Positions 51-28,704 of a DNA stretch of 39,278 nucleotides are shown in pieces. Under the pieces are notes generated by a model, which was given only the letters and a program-made list of their open reading frames with translations, made no database searches and was not told the origin of the DNA. The translations under genes and the position numbers were made by a program. How positions within the stretch are numbered: position 1 is the stretch's first letter; each line of letters opens with the position of its first letter. This stretch comes from a virus (Duplodnaviria; Heunggongvirae; Uroviricota; Caudoviricetes): the IMG/VR virus record IMGVR_UViG_2690316285_000009. One strand, given 5' to 3'.

Positions 51-116
51 TTTGATACCGATTTGCATTTCATTTGATACCGCTGAAAAACGCCGATACG
101 CAACTTATTTGATACT
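51..116. repeat. Array of three TTTGATAC(C/T) motifs (51-59, 73-81, 108-116) at the phage right end; putative transposase end-binding sites
   Basis: Same 9-mer recurs three times within 70 bp and its reverse complement GGTATCAAA/AGTATCAAA recurs three times at the other window end; about 11/20 positions outside the outermost copies also match between the two ends. Confidence 0.6.
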
Positions 117-161
117 AAATCGGCGCTTTTCTTTTGAGTTTTAGAATGAGTTTTTAAGCGT

Positions 162-899
162 TCATTCACTCTCTTTCAAACCAGTTTTAACTGTTTGTGG
201 TTTTGGGTAAGGCTGGACTTTGAATAGCTTTGTGTTAAGGCGTTTTCTGGCTCTCTTGTCCAGAAACCGGATGTAACGAAACTGACGGAATTTATGAACA
301 CTGGCTCTGTCGATATTAGCCCGCAGATGTTCACCTCGCTGTCCTCCTCGTTTGATTGCATTCTTGCAAATCTCGTGATACCACTCGCCATCAAGTTCAT
401 AGAATGTTGTTTCATGACTGCCTACATAATCAAAATTGCTTGCCTGGTACACGACACCAAGACAGCCACAACGCTCATCTGCAAACGACTGAACCCACTG
501 CACCTGCGGATAAAGTTGTCTGATTAGTTTGAGCGCGTAACTGATTGCCCTTGATTCGGAGTTTCTCGGCATACAGTCATGCAGCCATAACCGGTTAAGC
601 TCCATATATTCGCGGTTCTGCGTGCCAGTTACGACGCGTGCACCATTGTTTGGATTAAGGGCATAACCCCATTGCATTACGCCAACCAGCTCCCGTTCTG
701 AAAATATGCCCAGATGAAGGTAGGAATTATTTACGAAACGATGGCTGTAATGTTTATTGACGACGACCAGCCGGGCCAGCCAGCAACTTATTGTCTCAAC
801 CCGTAACTCACGGGAGCCATAACCGACGATATTGTCGTTATAGTGAATAAGTTCAGGCGTGCTGATGATACGGGATGTAACTTGCTTTCTGTTCCCCAC
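162..899 (-). CDS. mom: Mom-like DNA modification protein; start codon uncertain (proposed GTG at 899, the ORF extends upstream to 1094)
   Basis: Terminal position next to com as in phage Mu; 5-prime end overlaps the com 3-prime end; AAGGA sequence 9 nt upstream of an in-frame GTG at 899; size about 245 aa is near the Mu Mom size as I recall it. Confidence 0.7.
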
Positions 900-1053
900 G
901 ACAGGATTTCCTTGTGTATGTGGGGTGCTCTGTGGCGCTCTGAGATGTGATTTGATTGAGGGTTTTACAGCGCGGACATTTAACTTCCAGATAACTGAAG
1001 CTGGCTCGTGCCAGTAGCTTGTTACAATGTCGGCACCGTATGTTTCGATACAT
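853..1053 (-). CDS. com: Com-like zinc-finger translational activator of mom
   Basis: Translation contains [10 protein letters not shown]...VKCPRCK, a C4 zinc-finger pattern matching the Mu Com layout; AGGAGG Shine-Dalgarno (plus coords 1064-1069) about 10 nt upstream of the ATG at 1053; overlaps the mom 5-prime end. Confidence 0.8.
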
Positions 1054-1098
1054 GGCCGCATAACCTCCTGCTTTGTTGTTGATATCTTTATCACTCAA

Positions 1099-1120
1099 TC
1101 GATCGACAAAAACGATCGAT
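1099..1120. promoter_or_regulatory. Two GATC-containing palindromic boxes (TCGATCGA and CGATCGAT) upstream of com; candidate Dam-sensitive regulatory site of the mom operon
   Basis: Sequence caatcgatcgacaaaaacgatcgatt read directly; a third GATC at 1183-1186; lies just upstream of the com RBS. Confidence 0.4.
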
Positions 1121-1309
1121 TTGATTTATTTAATTGATACAACAAATAACACGAAATGTCATTAGCGAAAATTTATGAGTTTGATCACTAATTTTAAACG
1201 GTGCTGTAACGCATAAGTGCTGAATGATTGTACATTTGAATACCGCAAAGCAAACAAATCAACTAATTTATAGAAGTCAATTGGTTAATTGCCAGCGTAA
1301 GAGGCTGCT

Positions 1310-1603
1310 ATGGACAATCATGTAACGACGAGAAATCGAAAAATGATTGAAAATGCGGAAATCTATAATGATTATTTTTCCGATTATTCAGATGCCTGCA
1401 AATACAGTTCGAGTGCGGGAGAGTTCATATGCTTCAACTTTTTTATTAAATCTTATGTTTTTCCTCCACAGCAAGAAGATGGAGGTGTGCCACCTCCTGA
1501 AATCACTTTGCACCGTATAGCCTCCGTCTCAATGATGGAGCAACAGGCTAATGAGCTGTATAGCATTCTGGGAACGATTCTACAAAAGCGTGAATCGGAC
1601 TAA
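1310..1603 (+). CDS. Hypothetical protein (97 aa) in AT-rich cargo DNA, opposite strand to phage genes
   Basis: ORF with AAGAGG Shine-Dalgarno 6 nt upstream of ATG; markedly AT-rich relative to the phage backbone; no recognisable motif. Confidence 0.45.
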   Translation: MDNHVTTRNRKMIENAEIYNDYFSDYSDACKYSSSAGEFICFNFFIKSYVFPPQQEDGGVPPPEITLHRIASVSMMEQQANELYSILGTILQKRESD

Positions 1604-1770
1604 TGATACCGGTTCATTTGCCTGCCCGGATGGGGAAGCAGGATTGACTGCTCCATAAGCAGCTATATTTCTGAATACGAAATACTATCCAGCGATTACA
1701 TATGGCTGGATAGCGGCAAAGATGTTTTCATTAGTGTCAAACCGGCAGAGGACACCACCGGTTTGTATTG

Positions 1771-2025
1771 TTACATCATGGTACTGTCAGTTCCGGGCTG
1801 AGCCGGGTCTGGTTGCTCTGGCTGCGCGTCGGTTTTCGGCTCATTATCAGCATCACTGGCCGCAACTGCTGGCCCAATAAGTTTTGCCAGCACTTCATCA
1901 ACGTAAGTGTCGATTTGTGCCTCAAAATCCTTGCGGACCTGCGCTTTCAGCAACTTATTTACTTCACCGGAATACAGTGCCTGTTTTACCAGGTCTTCAG
2001 TGACGGTGCCTTTAATTTCTGGCAT
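1771..2025 (-). CDS. Hypothetical acidic protein (84 aa) with a low-complexity D/E/P/Q-rich C-terminus
   Basis: Strong AAGGAGG Shine-Dalgarno 7 nt upstream of ATG at 2025; downstream of and co-oriented with the small membrane-protein gene. Confidence 0.55.
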   Translation of the reverse strand: MPEIKGTVTEDLVKQALYSGEVNKLLKAQVRKDFEAQIDTYVDEVLAKLIGPAVAASDADNEPKTDAQPEQPDPAQPGTDSTMM

Positions 2026-2060
2026 GTATATCCTCCTTATGCGGGAATAAAGCCCTGCAA

Positions 2061-2243
2061 TCAGGGCTGGGTCGGGTCTTTTGGGAGCGGAGTTACCTGC
2101 GCTGTTTTACGGAGTTTTTCAGCTGCTGCGTCCTCAATTTTGCGGCGAACATAATTTCTGATGGCCTTATAACCACCACTCACCAGATATAACGCACATA
2201 CTGCCGTGCAGAAATACAATAAAATAAGCTGTAAAAATGTCAT
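2061..2243 (-). CDS. Small membrane protein (about 60 aa, one predicted transmembrane helix followed by a basic/charged tail)
   Basis: GGGAGGG Shine-Dalgarno immediately upstream of internal ATG at 2243 (the ORF track starts at 2255); hydrophobic stretch LQLILLYFCTAVCALYLV. Confidence 0.5.
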   Translation of the reverse strand: MTFLQLILLYFCTAVCALYLVSGGYKAIRNYVRRKIEDAAAEKLRKTAQVTPLPKDPTQP

Positions 2244-2339
2244 TATCCCTCCCAATTATTGACATGGTGTTGACACCGGTAATATCTGTTAGGTAAAAAG
2301 GTGCACTGCATTTTTTGCTTTGGATATAACGATCTTTTT

Positions 2340-2381
2340 GCCGCCGGTTTCTTGTTTTCCCTTACCGGCGGCATTTTTTTA
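2340..2381 (+). terminator. Intrinsic-terminator-like hairpin functional in the plus direction (9-bp GC stem GCCGCCGGT/ACCGGCGGC followed by a 7-T run)
   Basis: Read directly from sequence; on the minus strand the hairpin is followed by an A-run, so it is not a canonical terminator for the esterase gene that ends at 2388. Confidence 0.5.
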
Positions 2382-2387
2382 TCCTGC

Positions 2388-4442
2388 TTACGCGTTATTC
2401 ACTTCCACCACGATACTGTCAATCAGTACCGGGTAAGTCGCATTTTTAGTGATATCGGTCACGCGCAACTTGTCTGCCGTAAACGTGCCGACCGGAGACT
2501 GCGACAGCATGAATGGTGTCCCGTCCTTACCATCAATGACCGGCGTCACCTCAATACTGTTGTTACCGGCAAAACGGAAGCCCAGCGTATGCCATTCGTT
2601 ATTAAATGCGCCGAATGACCCCAGCTTCGTGTTCTGCGCCGTGTTTCCTTTGTGATACATCACGTTAAGGTCTGTGGCATCGCTCTGTACGTAGAACGAT
2701 GCCAGCAGGTTATGACCGGCATTTCCTTCCAGAGTAACCCCTTGCGGCAGGGCAGAAACCGGCCAGTACAGCGCCAGTGCGTACTGATTAGCCGTAAGCG
2801 CGCCATCGAGTTTAAAACGACAACTGACAAGACCACCTTTACCCAGCAGGTCCGCACCATTACCAGCATCATGCTCAAGGTACCAGGGGGCTCTTCCTGT
2901 TTCCTTGGTCAGTTTCATTGCCTTACCCCCGCTGGCTCCGGCATCATCCACGATTTGAGCCTTGCCACCTCCGGCAGCCCAACCCTGTGGTGTCAACCGT
3001 CCTTCAGACTCAGATGCCCGGTAAGCAAATAGCGTACTCATCGTCGTGGTGTCTGCGGGTGGCGTGGACGGTTTTGATGGTGTATCAGGTGACGGCTTCT
3101 CATCCGGTGGTGTCACGGTCTGCCCGCGCATCAGTTCAGCCGTGCGCCCTGCATGGAGCATAATAGCTGAGGCCAGACGGTCTGAAATGACGCCCCTGCG
3201 TGCCCATGAGCTGAAATGGCTGTCACGCTGTGTCGAAACAAAACTGCCCTGGGTTCGGGATGCTGCACCGTAATACCCGACAGCCACAATATCCGGGTCT
3301 TCCGCCGGAGCATTCGTTGGCGTGCTCTGTCCATTCTCATCCGTCAGGAACGGTACAAAGAAAATTTTCTGTGCTTCCTTGCCTTTGTAGCCACCGTATA
3401 CTGCCTCATATTTATCGGTGCCAGCGTTTTTCCAGTAATACGTGGTATCACCGCAAATCCACGGCACCGTGGTGGCATTTCCACTCACGCACTGCGCAGC
3501 AAGCGGAGCCTGGTCAGTTCTGAACTGCTGAACCATGGCCGTGAATAAACTATTATGCTGCTGGCTTCCTGAGGCAAGGTCTGCCTCTCCCTGCATCCAG
3601 ACCACAGCCAGAAGTTTGTTTTTCGGGTTTTTCGCCAGCGCGACTTTGGTGCGGCTTACCAGGTCCTGATACAGAGGTTTACCGGCCCCCCAGCGTGAAG
3701 AATCAGCGGAAGCACCGCTGGCCTCACTGAATGAGCCGTCGGCTCCAGTGGTGAATGCTGACCCGCCACGACAACAGGGCACCAGAAGTATCCCGGCATT
3801 CTGTGGGATATAGGGAAGCAGTTTTTTGGCAATATGCAACCCCTGACCGACAGTCCCGTACTGGCCTTTTGCCAGATCAGCTTTCGGGTGGTTTATCCCG
3901 CTCATATCCTGAACATCATGCAGGCAGTGGTCTGCCGGAATGATGTCGTTGTATGTACACGACGTACCGTTGGGCGTTACCGTACTGCGGCGTGCCAGTT
4001 GCTTAATGCGTGGGTCCGGGCGGTCAAACGAATCCGGTAACGGCAGCCCCTCGCCGTAGGCCATGCCATTTGACTGACCCGCGAGAATGACAACAAAGTA
4101 ATATTCCGGCTCTGAACTGCTGCCATTCGTGCTACCGGAAGGCCCGGCGTTATCCGGTGCATTCCAGTCGGAGGGCGTGAGCGTTCCGGCCACGTCAGAT
4201 GTGATTGGAATGATGCCAGTCACGCCTGAACTGGTGATTTCTGCACTGGGATTACCGGATACCGGCATTACCCATAATGGCTCTTTCGTGCTGAAGCGGA
4301 TCACGCAGTCTGCGAAGGTGATCCCCCCTTTATTACCCGAAGGGCGGAAAGGGCTTTCAATAAATGCCACCGTGCCACCGGCAACCTTGACTGAAAACTC
4401 TCCGGGCATGGCGGAGAGCATTTTCCACTTGGAGTCTGACAT
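2388..4442 (-). CDS. Multi-domain SGNH/SASA-family carbohydrate O-acetylesterase (684 aa): N-terminal domain, esterase core, Pro/Thr-rich linker, C-terminal roughly 200-aa domain of unknown type
   Basis: Motifs in the translation: VVILAGQSNGMAYGEG (GQSN catalytic-serine block), VVWMQGEADLASG (QGE block), RDSHFS (D-x-H block) in the order expected for SGNH/SASA esterases; linker PPDEKPSPDTPSKPSTPPADTTT; no N-terminal signal peptide. Confidence 0.7.
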   Translation of the reverse strand: MSDSKWKMLSAMPGEFSVKVAGGTVAFIESPFRPSGNKGGITFADCVIRFSTKEPLWVMPVSGNPSAEITSSGVTGIIPITSDVAGTLTPSDWNAPDNAGPSGSTNGSSSEPEYYFVVILAGQSNGMAYGEGLPLPDSFDRPDPRIKQLARRSTVTPNGTSCTYNDIIPADHCLHDVQDMSGINHPKADLAKGQYGTVGQGLHIAKKLLPYIPQNAGILLVPCCRGGSAFTTGADGSFSEASGASADSSRWGAGKPLYQDLVSRTKVALAKNPKNKLLAVVWMQGEADLASGSQQHNSLFTAMVQQFRTDQAPLAAQCVSGNATTVPWICGDTTYYWKNAGTDKYEAVYGGYKGKEAQKIFFVPFLTDENGQSTPTNAPAEDPDIVAVGYYGAASRTQGSFVSTQRDSHFSSWARRGVISDRLASAIMLHAGRTAELMRGQTVTPPDEKPSPDTPSKPSTPPADTTTMSTLFAYRASESEGRLTPQGWAAGGGKAQIVDDAGASGGKAMKLTKETGRAPWYLEHDAGNGADLLGKGGLVSCRFKLDGALTANQYALALYWPVSALPQGVTLEGNAGHNLLASFYVQSDATDLNVMYHKGNTAQNTKLGSFGAFNNEWHTLGFRFAGNNSIEVTPVIDGKDGTPFMLSQSPVGTFTADKLRVTDITKNATYPVLIDSIVVEVNNA

Positions 4443-4513
4443 CGTCTTTTCTGCCTGTTTCTGAATTAAACAGAGTCAGAATAGCGACCGCTGAAAAATA
4501 TGTGTTTTGCGGA

Positions 4514-4547
4514 AATTCAAAAAAGCGTCACGGTACTTTTGGTGACG
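4514..4547 (-). terminator. Rho-independent terminator at the 3-prime end of gin
   Basis: Stem CGTCAC/GTGACG with 10-nt loop followed, on the minus strand, by a 6-T run; the gin stop codon lies inside the stem. Confidence 0.6.
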
Positions 4548-5100
4548 GAGCTGGTGAGGCAGGAAAATAACGATAAAGGGTGGAAAGGCCAATATCAAAT
4601 ATCAGTGCGATTTGTTTACGGGACTCGCCATTAGCCAGCAAACGGGCGATTTGCTCCCGCTCTTTCTCTGTCAGTTTCTGAGGTCTGCCGCCATGACGCC
4701 CCTGAGCACGGGCAGCAGCAAGACCCGCGCGTGTACGTTCAATAATGAGTTCCCGCTCCATTTCCGCCAGCGCGCCCATTATATGGAAAAAGAAACGTCC
4801 CATGGGAGTGGATGTATCAATATTGTCCGTAATGCTGCGGAAGTTAACGCCGCGTTGCCGGAGTTCTTCTGTTAAAAGGACAAGGTGCTGCATACTGCGT
4901 CCAAGGCGATCCAGTTTCCAGACCAGCAGGGTATCCCCTGGCCGGAGTCGCTTTAATGCGCGTTTAAGTCCGGGACGCTCCCTTGTCTTACCGCTTATTC
5001 TGTCTTCGAAAAACAGCTCACATCCTGCACATTCCAGCGCATTTCTTTGTAGCGCCGTATTCTGGTCATTTGTTGACACCCTGATATACCCAATCAGCAT
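4528..5100 (-). CDS. gin: Gin-type serine DNA invertase
   Basis: N-terminus MLIGYIRVSTNDQ with the catalytic serine context typical of Hin/Gin/Cin resolvase-invertases; C-terminal helix-turn-helix; sits next to an invertible segment bounded by gix-like sites. Confidence 0.9.
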   Translation of the reverse strand: MLIGYIRVSTNDQNTALQRNALECAGCELFFEDRISGKTRERPGLKRALKRLRPGDTLLVWKLDRLGRSMQHLVLLTEELRQRGVNFRSITDNIDTSTPMGRFFFHIMGALAEMERELIIERTRAGLAAARAQGRHGGRPQKLTEKEREQIARLLANGESRKQIALIFDIGLSTLYRYFPASPAPSPKVP

Positions 5101-5164
5101 ACGATTTCCTTATTATAAAAAGCCGGAATTGTCGCATGAGGAATAAAACAGAGTTAATCCTGGC

Positions 5165-20719: not shown

Positions 20720-21193
20720 TTACGGCGTTTCTGTGGCCTTTTTAAAGCGTTTTCTGATTTCGTCCATGATCTCCTGTTCTGCCACCTGATCAAAGCCCAT
20801 ATACGGACGTGCGCCAATGGCCGCCGGTCCCGGTGGCATACCAGGCAGGCCACCCCACTGATGAATGGCCGCATAAGGTTCATTTGATCCAATCAGCGCC
20901 CAGGTATCGCCATAATCCGTGGTCAGGCGGCGGGCCAGATCGCCGTTCAGTGTCAGGATTTTGCCGGGCGTGTATCCCTTACGGGTACGCCACTTGCGGT
21001 AAGGAGCTGACCAGTCATGCCAGCGTTCGCCGTCCGGCTCTTTTTCCTGTTCAAACGCCATTTCTGACGATGACAGAAGACTCTCCGCCACACTGCGGGC
21101 CAGGTCTTTTCCGCCGCCCACAAACTGAAGCCGGGCAAACACCCGCTGGAGACGCGTAACGTCAACAACGACAGCGGCATCAATGGATGACAT
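20720..21193 (-). CDS. Virion morphogenesis protein, Mu G-like
   Basis: 157-aa product between F-like and I-like genes. Confidence 0.6.
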   Translation of the reverse strand: MSSIDAAVVVDVTRLQRVFARLQFVGGGKDLARSVAESLLSSSEMAFEQEKEPDGERWHDWSAPYRKWRTRKGYTPGKILTLNGDLARRLTTDYGDTWALIGSNEPYAAIHQWGGLPGMPPGPAAIGARPYMGFDQVAEQEIMDEIRKRFKKATETP

Positions 21194-21314
21194 ATTGCCT
21201 CCGCATAAAGGATGAATATAAAATAAACAGGCGGTCAGTGTACGCTTAACTGGTAAAGTCGGTGCCTGCCTCCGGGTGGATCATGTATGCGGGTTCGACC
21301 CCCGCCACTGACCG

Positions 21315-24219: not shown

Positions 24220-25886
24220 TACCAGCCCCCCCGATCAAATTCATGATATGCCTCATCGTCATCACGATAACCGCCCTCCATTGCCCGCGACCGCTCCGGT
24301 AGCGCCTGACAGGCTGATTCATCCAGGATGAAGCCCTCCATGTATGACGCCCGGTTTGCCATACAGAGCGCCACGGCAAAATCACCATGGCGGCGGGCGT
24401 TCGCAGCCGTTGCGTTCTGGTCCTTCGTGCGCCCCTTGTCGATTTGCGGGATACCATTCACTACCTTCACATGGCGCAAATCATCAAGCGTGGTCTGATG
24501 GCGGGCGACGAGGATATTCTGATCTTCAAACTCGGCTTTCAGTTTTGGCATCCACTCGCCGTACCACTTCGGCGACAACATCACGCAGTCGATGATATCC
24601 GGGCCAAAGGCCAGCAGTGCGGCCTCTGCCAGATAGCCGCCGTTACCGGTGGCGTCGAACGCCGCACCGACCAGCGCCGGAACGCGGGTCAGGATGTACA
24701 TCATCACCTGTTCCTGCTGGGCATACGGCAGGTTGCGCAGCTCCACGCGAAACACCTCGCGCTTTGCCAGGGATTCGGTGATTTCCAGCAGCATAAAGCA
24801 GGACAGGTCACCGGTGCGGGCAAAGTCTTCCCCGAAGCTGAAGCGGGAACGGGGATTTAATTTCTCTAAAAGCGGTTTTAAATGTTCTTCACACCAGGTT
24901 AAAACTTCCGATTCACGCAGCCATGCGGCACGGCTGATGAAGTTGTCCGGGGCTTCAAACGTCAGAATCGGGATGTCGCGGATCATCGCCATTTCAATAA
25001 GCGCGTGGGGGATATAGGCACCGCCGGATTTTTTCGGGATACAGCCGTATTCCTCGTCGGCATCCTCACGGGTCGGGGCGTTTTTGTAGAGATCATCACG
25101 CCATTTCTGCTCGCTTTCCGGTGACCATTCCTGATCGGTGACGTAACAGATACGACGGTACAGCCCGTCCGCAATGGCATCATCCAGGGTTATGCGGTGG
25201 ACGCTGTAATCCTTGCGCCCCTCGCGGGCTTCCTGAATGTACTGATTAAACAGATTATCGACGCCGTTATGCGTGGAGATAATACGCACGCGCGCGCCCC
25301 ACATAGTGAGCGCCATTGCCGCCTTGAGAAGCTCATCCAGTGACTCGTGGAACGCGGCTTCATCAATCACCACATCCCCCTGAAGGCCGCGCAGGTTTGA
25401 CGGACGGGAAGACAATGCCTGAATTTTGAATCCACTGTTCGGAAAGCGGATCATGTAGGTCAAAATTTCTTCTTTTTTATCCCGATCCCAGAATGTCTGC
25501 TCATACACATCAGCATCTGCCAGCTGGTTAAAGGCACGGGAGAACAGCGCGCAGGCAGAAATATATTCCAGCGCCATCTCCTGCTTTGATCCCACATAAA
25601 ACACATTGCGGCCACCACGACGCTTCGGTTTTGCAGCAGTAATGACGTTACGCCCGGCTTCCGCCCAGGTAAGACCGGTGCGGCGGGATTTCTCCGCGAT
25701 GCAGACCTGACTTTCATCTGCAAACCAGCGGGCCTGATAATCCAGAAACACCGGCATATCACCGGGCAAATCAAGGCTGTCCGGCACATCCACGCCCAGC
25801 AGGGCTTTTTCACCGGACAGATCAATTTTGCGGGGAGGCGTCATTTGCATCAGTGAAGGCGACGTTTCTCTGGCTTTGTTCATCAT
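24219..25886 (-). CDS. Terminase large subunit (Mu gp28-like)
   Basis: 555-aa product at the start of the head module, upstream of portal. Confidence 0.8.
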   Translation of the reverse strand: MMNKARETSPSLMQMTPPRKIDLSGEKALLGVDVPDSLDLPGDMPVFLDYQARWFADESQVCIAEKSRRTGLTWAEAGRNVITAAKPKRRGGRNVFYVGSKQEMALEYISACALFSRAFNQLADADVYEQTFWDRDKKEEILTYMIRFPNSGFKIQALSSRPSNLRGLQGDVVIDEAAFHESLDELLKAAMALTMWGARVRIISTHNGVDNLFNQYIQEAREGRKDYSVHRITLDDAIADGLYRRICYVTDQEWSPESEQKWRDDLYKNAPTREDADEEYGCIPKKSGGAYIPHALIEMAMIRDIPILTFEAPDNFISRAAWLRESEVLTWCEEHLKPLLEKLNPRSRFSFGEDFARTGDLSCFMLLEITESLAKREVFRVELRNLPYAQQEQVMMYILTRVPALVGAAFDATGNGGYLAEAALLAFGPDIIDCVMLSPKWYGEWMPKLKAEFEDQNILVARHQTTLDDLRHVKVVNGIPQIDKGRTKDQNATAANARRHGDFAVALCMANRASYMEGFILDESACQALPERSRAMEGGYRDDDEAYHEFDRGGW

Positions 25887-26725: not shown

Positions 26726-27016
26726 TTACCCCCTTGCGCGTGGTTTCTTCACACCCGGAACAGTGGCACGACCTTCCGCCACATCCTGACCCCGGCCGGT
26801 CAGTTCAGCGATGAAATAACCGTTAACAAGCGTGCGCTTACGCACCAGTCCCTGCTCAGCAAGCCAGGCAATGTGGGTGTGAACGGTGTCGCGGGACACG
26901 CGGTGGCCGTAATCATCCAGGCAGTCCTGAAGCACGGATTCGCCCAGTTCGCCGTTGTAATCCGCCAGCGACCGCAGAATGACAAGACGCTGATCTTCAG
27001 TAATGAAATCACTCAT
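26726..27016 (-). CDS. Mu gp26-like small protein (winged-helix-like)
   Basis: 96-aa product; conserved position. Confidence 0.45.
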   Translation of the reverse strand: MSDFITEDQRLVILRSLADYNGELGESVLQDCLDDYGHRVSRDTVHTHIAWLAEQGLVRKRTLVNGYFIAELTGRGQDVAEGRATVPGVKKPRARG

Positions 27017-27320
27017 TGTGTTTTTTCCTTACAGCCTGCTCCAGCAGCAGTTCGTTCTGGTGGGAGACGGATTTCAGGGTGGCATTGGTGGCCTTAAGCT
27101 CACCGCGCAGGGTGGTGATTTCGATATTGAGTCTGTTCACCTCCTGCTGCGTGGGCAGGCCGGAAATCCGGCTCTCCACCCGCTCAACCCGGTCGGAGAG
27201 TTTTTCAAAGGCCTCGCGGGGGACAAAGGTTTTGCGCATCAGCGCCATAAAGATCCCCCCGGCCGTGGCTGTTGCCGACAGGATCGGCACGACATAATCT
27301 TTAACGATGCTGACCCACAT
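27009..27320 (-). CDS. Small membrane protein, Mu gp25-like (lysis-associated; holin/releasin-like candidate)
   Basis: One predicted transmembrane helix (YVVPILSATATAGGIFMALM) followed by a coiled coil; sits in the lysis cassette. Confidence 0.5.
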   Translation of the reverse strand: MWVSIVKDYVVPILSATATAGGIFMALMRKTFVPREAFEKLSDRVERVESRISGLPTQQEVNRLNIEITTLRGELKATNATLKSVSHQNELLLEQAVRKKHNE

Positions 27321-27594
27321 GACCGGCCTCCATGATGCTCTGGCAGTTCACACAACGGATGGCATCCGGCACGGCAACCAGACGGGCGGCCGGAATGTCA
27401 CCCCCGCAGTCTGCGCATACACGCCTGCCCGGAGTCTCCTCCACCCGGCACTTACGTGTCAGCCGGTCACAAAGGGCGCGTTCTGTTGCCCGCTCCACGA
27501 CTGCCTGAGCACAATCTGAATCATCCATACCTTTTTCCTTACTTCGTCTTTCCTGCCGGAACAGCAGTCGTTCCGGCCATATCAGTAAATTCAT
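27301..27594 (-). CDS. TraR/DksA-family C4 zinc-finger protein
   Basis: CADCGGDIP...IRCVNCQ four-cysteine motif near the C-terminus. Confidence 0.75.
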   Translation of the reverse strand: MNLLIWPERLLFRQERRSKEKGMDDSDCAQAVVERATERALCDRLTRKCRVEETPGRRVCADCGGDIPAARLVAVPDAIRCVNCQSIMEAGHVGQHR

Positions 27595-27910
27595 GCTGTC
27601 GCTGTGCCTCCAGACGGCGGATGCTGGCCTTGTCCACGTTGCAGTTCTTAATCACCGCCAGCAGTTGCAGGTTGTAAGTGACCGATGCGCCAAACGTGAA
27701 CGGCTGCGGCACAGGAGGAACCAGACAGTCAGCCAGCCATTCAGCGGGGATCGGCACCGGCTTCACCGGCACGTATTTCACAGACGGCCCGCCGCACCCG
27801 GTCAGCCACATCATCAGGCACAGGAACAGAGGCCGCAGGCACCGTTGCCAGCGACCGGCGGACAATGCTCTGCTGTTCCTCGCTGTGCTGCATGTTCTGC
27901 TGTTTTTCAT
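27539..27910 (-). CDS. Rz1-like outer-membrane spanin lipoprotein, alternative frame overlapping the i-spanin gene (start uncertain)
   Basis: Hydrophobic stretch followed by lipobox LTGC, then a proline-rich segment (VKYVPVKPVPIPAEW). Confidence 0.45.
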   Translation of the reverse strand: MKNSRTCSTARNSRALSAGRWQRCLRPLFLCLMMWLTGCGGPSVKYVPVKPVPIPAEWLADCLVPPVPQPFTFGASVTYNLQLLAVIKNCNVDKASIRRLEAQRQHEFTDMAGTTAVPAGKTK

Positions 27911-28262
27911 TCGTGGCCGCCTTACTGATTTGTGAAATGAGTTGCAGGGTGCGTTGCTGGTTTGCCAGCACCAGACGGGCTTCGTCCCGTTCACGCACAA
28001 GCACATGATTATTGTCCTCAAGGCGCTGCGTCTTCTGGTGCATTCCCCATACCACGGCAGCCAGCACGCTCATCACCCCCAGCGCCGCCATACAGCCTCC
28101 GGCAATCAGGGCCGGTAAGGGATTGTTCACCGCAGACACAGCACACCCCGCAGCAGCACAACGGCACACAGCAGCGCAATCATGAGCGGTCGCCAGAAGC
28201 GGTTCAGACTTTCGGCAAATCGTAACGACATAACCATTCATCCGCCGAACGGCGGGCCTCAA
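27741..28262 (-). CDS. Rz-like inner-membrane spanin
   Basis: N-terminal transmembrane segment, long coiled-coil-like body, overlaps the endolysin 3-prime end and contains the Rz1-like frame. Confidence 0.6.
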   Translation of the reverse strand: MRPAVRRMNGYVVTICRKSEPLLATAHDCAAVCRCAAAGCAVSAVNNPLPALIAGGCMAALGVMSVLAAVVWGMHQKTQRLEDNNHVLVRERDEARLVLANQQRTLQLISQISKAATNEKQQNMQHSEEQQSIVRRSLATVPAASVPVPDDVADRVRRAVCEIRAGEAGADPR

Positions 28263-28704
28263 GACCGGGGAGTTTTACCCCCTTTGAATAAATCCAGCGG
28301 ATATACTGCTTACAGGACGCGGGCATCTGCCCGGCATTGATAAGGCGCAGGAGCGTGGAGTTGCGAAAGTTCGTTTCACCGGCCCAGAAAATCCAGGAGG
28401 CCAGCGCCACCGTCTGACCACGGGTAAGCGGCACCTGAACATGACGATCGATAGCCGCAAAGGCCCATTTCATGTCCTTTTCCAGCAGCTCCAGACACTC
28501 TTCATCAGTTTTTGTCATCCCCGGTTTCACATCCGGGCCGGTATGGCCGTAACAGATGGTGGGGGTGCCGGTGGGATCAATGTACGTGGTGTTTTCTTTC
28601 CCTTCCCAGTAGCCGGTGTAGTGCGTGGCAATAGTGAACGTCCCGGCTCCGGCCAGAACAAGGGCAATCAGCTTTTTACGCAGTGGCGCGGGGAGTTTTG
28701 GCAT
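28204..28704 (-). CDS. lys: Endolysin, T4-lysozyme-type (GH24) with N-terminal signal-anchor-release-like segment
   Basis: Lysozyme-like catalytic region (..TICYGHTG..EECLELLEKDM..) preceded by a weakly hydrophobic Gly/Ala-rich N-terminus (LIALVLAGAGTFTIA). Confidence 0.85.
   Translation of the reverse strand: MPKLPAPLRKKLIALVLAGAGTFTIATHYTGYWEGKENTTYIDPTGTPTICYGHTGPDVKPGMTKTDEECLELLEKDMKWAFAAIDRHVQVPLTRGQTVALASWIFWAGETNFRNSTLLRLINAGQMPASCKQYIRWIYSKGVKLPGLEARRSADEWLCRYDLPKV

Follow-up and report, generated by a model that had tools for sequence, protein, structure and literature searches.

Results

Layout of the locus

The window analyzed here, a stretch of 39,278 nucleotides, is a Mu-like E. 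coli prophage in which the genes run in the order gin, NanS-p-like esterase, DUF1378, DUF826, com and mom. The DUF1378 (PF07125) gene occupies positions 2061 to 2243 of the minus strand (ATG at 2243, 60 aa) and the DUF826 (PF05696) gene occupies positions 1771 to 2025 of the same strand (ATG at 2025, 84 aa); both spans come from the open reading frame list and include the stop codon. Each gene is preceded by a Shine-Dalgarno sequence on the minus strand, read directly from the DNA. GGGAGGG (2247-2253) lies 3 nt 5' of the DUF1378 ATG, and AAGGAGG (2032-2038) lies 6 nt 5' of the DUF826 ATG, inside the intergenic gap. An earlier, sequence-only reading of this DNA had given the same frame limits, co-orientation and strong Shine-Dalgarno sequences, and in these it was exact. 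It had also described the genes as tightly coupled, 36 bp apart. They are close neighbors, but the gap from the DUF1378 stop to the DUF826 start is 35 nt, and the term "tightly coupled" fits only in part: the genes do not overlap, they have separate ribosome-binding sites, and the spacing in other loci varies from 19 to 40 nt.

The DUF826 and ORF97 genes converge, and between them, directly 3' of the DUF826 stop, lies an 11-bp hairpin (1739-1766; fold -16.7 kcal/mol, z -3.25). It has no U run on the gene strand, thus its function as a terminator is uncertain. A sigma-70 scan of the 144-bp spacer upstream of DUF1378 found no promoter-like site.

The upstream neighbor of the pair is, as previously claimed, an esterase gene (2388-4442, minus strand). 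It encodes a 684-aa NanS-p-like carbohydrate O-acetylesterase with a SASA/SGNH domain (Pfam SASA, E 9e-13) and a C-terminal DUF6645 domain (E 8e-68), which matches phrog_143; such an esterase is the usual upstream neighbor of the two genes. Its N-terminal ~100 residues are unlike the N-terminus of NanS-p of the Stx phage VT2-Sakai when the translations of the open reading frames are compared, and the Pfam scan gave no match to DUF1737 in it. The phage of the window encodes a SAR-type endolysin, and its lysis genes are located at 27.0-28.7 kb, about 25 kb from the pair. A near-identical RefSeq prophage has an annotated tRNA-OTHER feature, for which ARAGORN gave no counterpart in the window.

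The two proteins

The DUF1378 protein matched PF07125 with 105.6 bits (cut-off 25, E 1.4e-30) over profile positions 1-58 of 59, and phrog_494 with an E-value of 8.6e-32. It has the features of this family, namely the ~59-aa enterobacterial/phage type, the N-terminal hydrophobic helix and the conserved motif. Its only hydrophobic segment, at residues 3-21, reaches a Kyte-Doolittle maximum of 2.27 over 19 residues, and the tail (residues 26-60) contains nine K+R against four D+E. The AlphaFold2 model is a single continuous helix from residue 3 to residue 50. Hydropathy, charge count and model all agree with the description of a ~60-aa single-helix membrane protein with a basic tail. The transmembrane helix covers approximately residues 3-24 and bears the conserved motif LLYFCTxVCxLYLxSGGY(K/R), in which LYFCTxVCxLYLxSGGY is invariant or nearly so across the DUF1378 alignments. 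It is followed by a basic helix to about residue 47 and then by a Pro-rich disordered tail. DUF1378 is a bitopic (single-pass) inner-membrane protein. According to the positive-inside rule, its N terminus would be outside and its basic helix would be cytoplasmic. The NCBIfam scan of this protein returned just two matches, both to MnmH and both far below the cut-offs (17 and 16 bits; cut-offs 361 and 220).

The DUF826 protein matched PF05696 with 58.7 bits (cut-off 25, E 6.4e-16) over profile positions 1-58 of 75, and phrog_311 with an E-value of 4.9e-28; the NCBIfam scan gave no match. Its net charge is -8, and residues 52-84 contain seven D+E, one K and six P. The AlphaFold2 model contains helices at residues 10-17 and 20-50 and a disordered tail from residue 55 (pLDDT < 50), which together with the residue counts fits the 84-aa protein with an acidic C-terminus described before. 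In the family alignment the helical N-domain (residues 1-51) and the C-terminal ...PGTDSTMM are conserved, and the Pro/acidic linker between them is variable. Because DUF826 has no hydrophobic segment, it is presumably cytoplasmic.

Only 70 relatives of DUF826 were found among 1.84 billion representative proteins, and the E. coli-type profile recovered no relative when searched against one genome per species. A long-tailed DUF826 subgroup was absent from the viral contigs searched. The longer DUF826 proteins in the annotation (the 139-aa "orf43" of VT2-Sakai and the N-extended entries P0141, P0178 and P0196) turned out to be out-of-frame read-ins over the 3' end of DUF1378, and the open reading frame list of the window contains no matching upstream extension. 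The Pantoea-type DUF826 proteins carry an N-terminal extension of ~20 residues (MWIxxWL...), which might be a built-in membrane-binding segment; the internal ATG also has a Shine-Dalgarno sequence.

Coding status and family membership

Both open reading frames are bona fide protein-coding genes that belong to two catalogued Pfam families. In E. coli Mu-like prophages that are 99.9% identical to this one, RefSeq labels the same proteins DUF826 and DUF1378. Selection on both genes is purifying, with dN/dS values of 0.14-0.32 for DUF1378 and 0.11-0.39 for DUF826, and the frames remain intact at 38-70% amino-acid identity, across synonymous divergence that is saturated. Start, length and Shine-Dalgarno sequence are kept over more than 20 alleles of each gene. 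The genes are present in at least 495 of the 5,426 complete E. coli genomes (at least 9%). The Pfam scores, the dN/dS values over saturating divergence and the recurrence in more than 100 independent loci place the two genes far beyond chance. Some frameshifted or fused copies do occur (L161, L233 and the annotated orf43 of VT2-Sakai), as expected if the frames were chance or decaying ones without function; against the scores, the selection, the conserved gene starts and the frequency in E. coli, we consider the probability of this reading negligible.

According to the sequence-only reading, the sequence does not name the function. This holds for function but not for family. The homology comparisons with Pfam, PHROG, NCBIfam, PADLOC and PDB named a function for neither protein. 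In the Pfam scan, matches other than those to their own DUFs were below the cut-off for both. The DUF1378 and DUF826 profiles had no significant match among PDB sequences, and Foldseek retrieved no PDB structure similar to the DUF826 model (0 hits). At the nucleotide level, a megablast search of phage genomes with this region returned nothing; the relatives described below were recovered by protein-level searches.

An antisense sRNA candidate between esterase and DUF1378

The spacer between the esterase and DUF1378 genes contains, on the opposite strand, a candidate PasA/PasC-like sRNA gene (2270-2382, plus strand). Its putative promoter consists of a -35 box TTGACA (2270-2275), an 18-nt spacer and TAAAAA (2294-2299). 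The predicted RNA has a body of ~75 nt and ends in a terminator hairpin formed by GCCGCCGG (2340-2347) and CCGGCGGC (2365-2372), followed by a run of seven T (2374-2380). Its predicted folding energy is -25.6 kcal/mol (z -4.9). Of 28 distinct spacers, 27 have kept promoter, hairpin and T run, and the hairpin is maintained with GC, CG, AU or GU at its outer pair. The 57-nt spacer of L081/L083 lacks the sRNA and these loci have kept the pair.

PasA/PasC (EcOnc51/52) of EPEC/EHEC prophages are similar to the candidate in that they lie directly downstream of the esterase gene in antisense orientation, measure ~75-85 nt, begin with a 5' AAAAxGTxCACTGC motif and end in an intrinsic terminator. Their overall sequence similarity to the candidate is weak and falls short of clear homology, and the same is true of Esr41. 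The Esr41 model (RF02676), whose gathering score is 102, gave 22.2 bits for the window and 30.9 bits for VT2-Sakai, and no Rfam family passed its gathering threshold in the window. PasA/PasC sRNAs also exist without DUF1378, and they have been described as trans-acting and Hfq-dependent (PMC8550237). The candidate is a neighbor of the pair, outside its coding sequence, and a possible regulator of it.

Distribution of the pair

The membrane protein and its acidic partner recur together elsewhere, as expected from the earlier pairing of the two genes. The order esterase-DUF1378-DUF826 was found in 82 of 82 viral and reference loci, on both Mu-like and lambdoid backbones, and in metagenomes DUF826 adjoins DUF1378 in 68 of 77 evaluable loci. 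Overall, the genes are adjacent in about 150 of the 159 evaluable loci, which were seeded on DUF1378. The phage collection has 309 records with DUF1378 and 308 (306+2) with DUF826; the esterase is present in 347. A distant Mu/P2-like lineage (L151-153, L164) has the reversed order, DUF826 then DUF1378, still adjacent and without the esterase. The divergences of the two genes correlate with r = 0.54.

Either gene can occur alone. Intact DUF1378 without DUF826 was found in L162/163, L166/168/170 and L191, and in other (Pantoea-type) phages about 64 of the 67 loci have a DUF826 relative on its own. In the E2348/69 prophage PP2 and in phage 86, the esterase is followed by the holin with no pair between them. 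The backbones that carry the pair or one of its members are lambdoid, Mu-like, P2-like and, in Pantoea phages, P22/lambda-like. Variable presence at one site and occurrence on unrelated backbones are the pattern of a "moron".

The neighbors of the genes differ among these phages. In E. coli, the pair is almost always directly behind a NanS-p-type O-acetylesterase gene. In all lambdoid loci it is directly upstream of an S21-type pinholin, and within the lambdoids the divergence of DUF826 tracks that of the holin (r = 0.62). In a P2-like phage, esterase and DUF1378 come directly after Rz/Rz1. The commonest arrangement places the Pantoea-type DUF826 relatives between the Rz spanin gene, directly upstream, and terS, the gene for the small terminase subunit; of 67 loci, 29 have the spanin gene as the immediate upstream neighbor and 26-28 have a terS-type gene as the immediate downstream one.

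Discussion

Temperate enterobacterial phages carry DUF1378 and DUF826 as a small accessory module, located at "moron" positions by lysis cassettes or after tail-fibre genes. The module is dispensable, because esterase and holin co-occur without it, and a DUF1378-DUF826 complex is not obligatory, because either gene can occur alone. Both families had been catalogued before. Our finding adds comparative context to them and does not introduce a new kind of system. Taken as a whole, the explanation that we favor (a catalogued coding pair, an accessory module, anchored in the membrane, with a role late in the phage cycle) is plausible without being probable. The late-stage role is its most tentative step, and several other roles have to be weighed against it.

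The resemblance to small toxin/immunity modules that had been pointed out for this pair was not supported by comparison, and we regard a toxin/immunity system as unlikely. Neither protein has a significant match to a toxin, antitoxin or defence family in PADLOC, NCBIfam or Pfam; the single PADLOC hit is a weak one of DUF826 to PbeC (E 0.0076, 12.9 bits), and DUF1378 had none. An unneutralized toxin should not persist without its partner, and the intact DUF1378 genes in loci without DUF826 therefore argue against a toxin that needs DUF826; the DUF826 relatives that stand alone do not fit the reading either. A variant of this idea has DUF1378 as a small membrane-damaging toxin that is neutralized by DUF826 or, in type I style, by the upstream antisense sRNA. 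Its size and hydrophobicity do fit type I toxins, the acidic partner contrasts with the basic tail of the membrane protein, and the divergent sRNA gene, which has a promoter and a terminator of its own, adjoins the DUF1378 start in 27 of 28 spacer types. The type I toxin-antitoxin loci tisB/istR-1 and zorO/orzO have the same plan, a gene for a hydrophobic protein of up to 60 aa with a ~75-nt divergent sRNA gene just upstream that has its own promoter and terminator. However, a co-oriented partner gene such as the one behind DUF1378 is untypical of such loci, the PasA/PasC family is found without DUF1378 and has trans targets, and the short L081/L083 spacer has the pair without the sRNA. Moreover, the strongly conserved transmembrane motif suggests specific interactions instead of generic membrane damage. 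Together with the solitary DUF1378 genes and the lack of a match to known toxin-antitoxin or defence families, these points make the membrane-damaging toxin very improbable. A prophage-expressed fitness or exclusion module, made in the lysogen to block the DNA of superinfecting phages or to protect or alter the host envelope, would suit the membrane location, the dispensability of the pair and its sites in five phage backbones, which are classic ones for accessory genes. Many accessory genes behind tail-fibre or lysis genes have such roles. In the Mu-like phages the pair follows gin and the tail-fibre genes, among genes for acyltransferase, GT25 glycosyltransferase, dam or mom. On the other hand, the weak PbeC match is the only PADLOC hit, and the spacer 5' of DUF1378, in which no promoter-like site was found, is filled by the antisense sRNA gene. 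In lambdoid phages the pair belongs to the Q-dependent late operon, with stx or the esterase before it and S behind it, and this position favors expression in the lytic phase. We consider such a fitness or exclusion module unlikely.

The usual company of the esterase raises another alternative, that DUF1378 and DUF826 are accessory factors which localize, release or regulate the NanS-p-type esterase, or serve glycan O-acetylation enzymes generally. The esterase has no obvious N-terminal signal peptide, it directly precedes the pair in every evaluable E. coli-type locus, and the trio has moved as a unit among lambdoid, Mu-like and P2-like backbones. About 89% of the phage records that carry the esterase also have DUF1378, and in the esterase-free lineage acyltransferase-3 and GT25 genes are among the neighbors. 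The association can nevertheless be broken from both sides. Esterases without the pair are found in the E2348/69 prophages PP2 and PP5 and in phage 86, whereas L151-153 and L164 have the pair without any esterase and the 67 Pantoea-type DUF826 loci also lack it. Mosaic breakpoints separate the esterase from DUF1378 in L080, where the esterase is 91% and DUF1378 64% identical to those of the window, and also in L069. The correlation between the divergences of esterase and DUF826 is merely 0.21. A role as accessory to the esterase is, in our view, distinctly unlikely.

For the late role that we favor, we propose tentatively that the pair may modulate the late or lysis stage of phages using SAR-type endolysins, as a non-essential factor; our confidence in this step is low. 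The pair is probably transcribed by read-through from the esterase, because there is no gene-strand terminator between esterase and pair and the conserved antisense sRNA gene fills the spacer. The helical domain of DUF826 would dock on the basic helix of DUF1378, and this docking would hold the acidic tail of DUF826 on the cytoplasmic side of the inner membrane. Small dispensable accessories of lysis timing, membrane-anchored or cytoplasmic and encoded in or beside lysis cassettes, are known: the T4 antiholins RI and RIII and the Mu gp25 "releasin". Compared by description, not by homology, the present pair is similar in that it adjoins pinholin or spanin genes in three phage backbones with SAR-type endolysins. 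It differs from them in having no detectable sequence or fold similarity to holin or antiholin families; neither Pfam nor PHROG matched a holin family. The holin-type location just upstream of S is suggestive in the lambdoid relatives. In the window itself the pair is ~25 kb from the lysis genes, so that the link to lysis comes from other phage types only. The correlation between DUF826 and holin may simply reflect linkage. Likewise, a place beside a lysis cassette or after tail fibres may reflect insertion sites and not function, because both are places where accessory genes in general have hot spots.

A more specific form of the lysis-stage proposal seems decidedly improbable to us. In this form, DUF1378-DUF826 would be a previously unrecognized two-protein regulator at the cytoplasmic face that tunes the lysis timing of pinholin/SAR-endolysin phages, and the PasA/PasC-like sRNA would keep the module and the lambdoid lysis genes silent in the lysogen. 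If true, the pair would set when Shiga toxin and NanS-p are released.

Some 300 sequenced Stx phages and relatives have the pair, which in them directly separates the toxin/esterase genes from the lysis genes; the module is portable, sometimes reversed and dispensable. In the literature the Stx-phage pair is mentioned in passing only, as being of unknown function (PMC10462455). In the Stx phages (933W, VT2-Sakai/Sp5 and others), both families likewise follow a homologous SASA esterase in the order of the window, at a similar spacing (40 nt vs. 35 nt in the window) and with the same antisense hairpin and T-run element in the esterase-DUF1378 spacer. They differ in the N-terminal domain of the esterase and in the setting, since their pair sits between nanS-p and the S pinholin whereas that of the window sits in a Mu-like prophage between gin and com-mom. 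The amino-acid identity between the window and VT2-Sakai is ~50% for DUF1378 and ~38-41% for DUF826.

The DUF1378 and DUF826 genes

The interval 1771-2243 coincides with two minus-strand ORFs, bearing out the co-oriented pair proposed in the sequence-only reading. The first ORF (2061-2243) encodes a 60-aa protein, MTFLQLILLYFCTAVCALYLVSGGYKAIRNYVRRKIEDAAAEKLRKTAQVTPLPKDPTQP, of Pfam family PF07125/DUF1378 (105.6 bits, E 1.4e-30). After a gap of 35 nt, the second (1771-2025) encodes an 84-aa protein with the C-terminal end ...EPKTDAQPEQPDPAQPGTDSTMM, of family PF05696/DUF826 (58.7 bits, E 6.4e-16). PHROG matches were found for both. The strong Shine-Dalgarno sites of that reading are also present: GGGAGGG (2247-2253, minus) lies 3 nt and AAGGAGG (2032-2038, minus) 6 nt upstream of the respective ATG. 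Both families are already known and catalogued, and are so annotated in RefSeq; the pair has received a passing mention in one paper (PMC10462455).

The earlier description of a single-helix membrane protein with a basic tail and an acidic partner agrees with the predicted properties. DUF1378 has a single strongly hydrophobic segment (residues 3-21, Kyte-Doolittle 2.27), with no charges ahead of it and 9 K+R vs. 4 D+E behind it, and AlphaFold2 models residues 3-50 as one helix and the tail as disordered. The positive-inside rule predicts an N-out/C-in topology. DUF826 lacks hydrophobic segments and carries a net charge of -8; in its AlphaFold2 model a short helix (10-17) precedes a long helix predicted with confidence (20-50), and the tail is disordered.

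Both are real genes. Start, length and frame are preserved among homologues with 38-76% amino-acid identity. Synonymous sites are near or at saturation, and pairwise dN/dS is 0.14-0.32 in DUF1378 and 0.11-0.40 in DUF826. In DUF1378, the conserved motif LLYFCTxVCxLYLxSGGY(K/R) leads into a basic helix. DUF826 consists of a 51-residue N-domain, an acidic, Pro/Gly/Ala-rich linker of highly variable length (whole protein 79-127 aa) and a short hydrophobic C-terminal end (e.g. ..MM, ..MML or ..LP).

Distribution and gene order

Both families are narrow. Word-indexed searches matched solely Escherichia and Shigella proteins, and just 70 DUF826 relatives turned up when 1.84 billion representative proteins were searched exhaustively with an HMM. 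The pair is detectable by DNA in 495 of 5,426 complete E. coli genomes. The 851-bp region matches chromosomal prophages of 14 complete E. coli genomes at 99.9% identity, and RefSeq names the products there "DUF826 domain-containing protein" and "DUF1378 family protein". In a phage genome collection, DUF1378 occurs in 309 records, DUF826 in 306 of Stx type and 2 of Mu type, and the esterase in 347, nearly all of them Stx-converting phages.

The window prophage is Mu-like, with the order tail/baseplate, tail fibre/assembly, gin invertase (4528-5100), esterase, DUF1378, DUF826, ORF97, com and mom. The 684-aa esterase ORF (2388-4442, minus) carries a SASA/SGNH carbohydrate esterase domain and a DUF6645 C-terminal domain, which together indicate a NanS-p-like enzyme. 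Its catalytic and C-terminal domains are homologous to those of NanS-p from the Stx phage VT2-Sakai; its N-terminal ~100 residues are unlike the VT2-Sakai N-terminus (MAFKHYDVV...).

A search for co-occurrence found the pair adjacent in two sets of loci. The first comprised 80 viral contigs, seeded with DUF1378 and annotated by tblastn. The order esterase-DUF1378-DUF826 was found throughout, and the 2 exceptions are contigs that end before the esterase position. This trio occupies two backbones, one Mu-like (gin-esterase-DUF1378-DUF826-[ORF97]-com-mom) and one lambdoid ([stx]-esterase-DUF1378-DUF826-S21-type pinholin-endolysin). In VT2-Sakai, DUF1378 is at 24755-24934 (stop codon included) and DUF826 at 24975-25220, directly ahead of S; the annotated 139-aa "orf43" was rejected as an out-of-frame merger of the two.

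Mosaic loci show recombination within the trio. Identity of L080 to the window is 91% in the esterase, 64% in DUF1378 and 53% in DUF826; in L081, DUF826 is identical to the copy in L003, with DUF1378 at 56%. The hybrid L069 (IMGVR_UViG_2617270951_000022, 96-5136) has gin and a Mu-type esterase, both 99% identical to the window copies, then DUF1378 and DUF826 of lambdoid type, an S21-type holin and an endolysin, which suggests that a Mu-like and a lambdoid prophage recombined inside the trio.

The second set contained 80 metagenome loci seeded with divergent DUF1378, and DUF826 adjoins DUF1378 in 68 of the 77 evaluable ones. The order is reversed and the esterase absent in L151-153, L159/160 and L164, where tail fibre, assembly protein, DUF826 and DUF1378 are followed by dam or acyltransferase. 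L151-L153 and L164 (e.g. L152 5941-6398) are Mu/P2-like; in these the pair immediately follows the tail-fibre assembly gene, and dam, acyltransferase-3 and GT25 are nearby. DUF1378 occurs without DUF826 in the other 9 loci: it is intact in L162/163, L166/168/170 (esterase-DUF1378-holin) and the P2-like L191 (holin, SAR-type endolysin, Rz/Rz1, esterase, DUF1378, tail completion genes), and frameshifted in L161 and L233. The esterase is followed directly by the holin, with the pair absent, in EPEC E2348/69 PP2 and Stx2 phage 86.

Distant DUF826 relatives were found in Pantoea, Erwinia and related phages. Their commonest site lies between an Rz spanin gene (immediately upstream in 29 of 67 loci) and a small terminase gene (a gene of this type immediately downstream in 26-28 of 67); in Mu-like elements they follow tail-fibre genes. 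Of the 67 loci, only 3 also contain DUF1378 and none the esterase. In these ORFs (L086-L150, e.g. L088 5950-6177), ~20 residues are added at the N-terminus, with W..WL/F as a recurring pattern (MWIKDWLFS..., MKITHWLKSLI...); this extension is only putatively translated, as the internal ATG likewise has a Shine-Dalgarno sequence.

An antisense sRNA-like gene in the spacer

A consensus scan found no promoter-like site in the 144-bp esterase-DUF1378 spacer. The opposite strand carries an sRNA-like gene (2270-2382, plus), which lies antisense in the interval bounded by the stop of the esterase (2388) and the start of DUF1378 (2243). Its promoter comprises TTGACA (2270-2275), an 18-nt spacer and TAAAAA (2294-2299), and its terminator a 10-bp GC-rich hairpin (core GCCGCCGG 2340-2347 / CCGGCGGC 2365-2372) followed by T7; the body is ~75 nt. 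Of 28 distinct spacers (80 loci), 27 have the promoter, hairpin and T run despite wide divergence in sequence, and the outermost hairpin pair varies (GC, CG, AU, GU). Rfam gave weak Esr41 matches only, 22 bits in the window and 31 bits at the equivalent place in VT2-Sakai, against a gathering score of 102.

The EPEC prophage sRNAs PasA (85 nt) and PasC (79 nt) (PMC8550237 table S6; bioRxiv 10.64898/2026.05.13.724894) resemble the window gene in position, orientation and size. They (EcOnc51/52) map downstream of esterase genes (L084/L085), in exactly the same position and orientation. On the gene strand, the sequence 3' of the hairpin is A-rich, not U-rich; thus read-through from the esterase into DUF1378-DUF826 is likely. 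The resulting mRNA would have full complementarity to the sRNA-like transcript.

Possible function of the pair

Adjacency in either order and near one-to-one record counts establish the pair as a real module. Divergence of DUF1378 correlates with that of DUF826 (r = 0.54), and the two correlate with the esterase at 0.35 and 0.21, respectively. The pair is not obligate, and is bound neither to the esterase nor to one phage type. The sequence-only reading had likened it to a toxin/immunity module. This is disfavored, since intact copies of each gene persist where the other is missing. Neither matched a defence, TA, holin or structural family.

The sites of the pair are always accessory-gene sites, adjacent to the lysis cassette in three backbones and after tail-fibre genes in two. 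In lambdoids, DUF826 divergence tracks that of the holin (r = 0.62) more closely than that of DUF1378 (r = 0.27), which could be co-adaptation or mere linkage. R21-like/SAR-type endolysins are common in phages with the pair, including the window phage (28204-28704, minus); since such endolysins are common, this is weak evidence. We tentatively propose, with low confidence, a dispensable membrane-anchored accessory complex active late in infection around lysis, in which DUF1378 would be the membrane anchor and DUF826 the cytoplasmic arm bearing the acidic disordered tail. The main rivals are a prophage-expressed exclusion or fitness function and an esterase-linked role; the esterase precedes the pair in both main backbones and is absent from the reversed lineage. 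No novel type of system emerges from the pair. The comparative picture of a portable, sometimes reversed, dispensable module near lysis genes, with a conserved antisense sRNA adjacent, may aid future characterization.

Other genes of the prophage

In the window lysis region (27009-28704, minus), the N-terminus of the endolysin is SAR-like and rich in Gly/Ala. The region also includes an i-spanin in which a lipobox ORF is embedded (27539-28262), a TraR/DksA-type zinc-finger ORF and, at 27009-27320, a 103-aa ORF whose product has a transmembrane segment at its N-terminus. ARAGORN found no tRNA genes in the entire window; RefSeq annotates a "tRNA-OTHER" in the near-identical prophage L001 (39536-39615, window ~21135-21214). 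The orphan ORF97 (1310-1603, plus, 97 aa), convergent with DUF826, gave no hits in Pfam, PHROG, NCBIfam or PADLOC; many Mu-like relatives have it at the equivalent site with 80-100% identity, and others, e.g. L003 and L016, lack it. At the prophage right end, com (853-1098, minus; zinc ribbon, 81 aa) overlaps the start of the Mom-family gene mom (162-~870, minus). In L003 (7237-8289), a Mu-like phage within an Stx2c phage (LC727881), com is followed by what looks like a cytosine-C5 DNA methyltransferase gene in place of mom.
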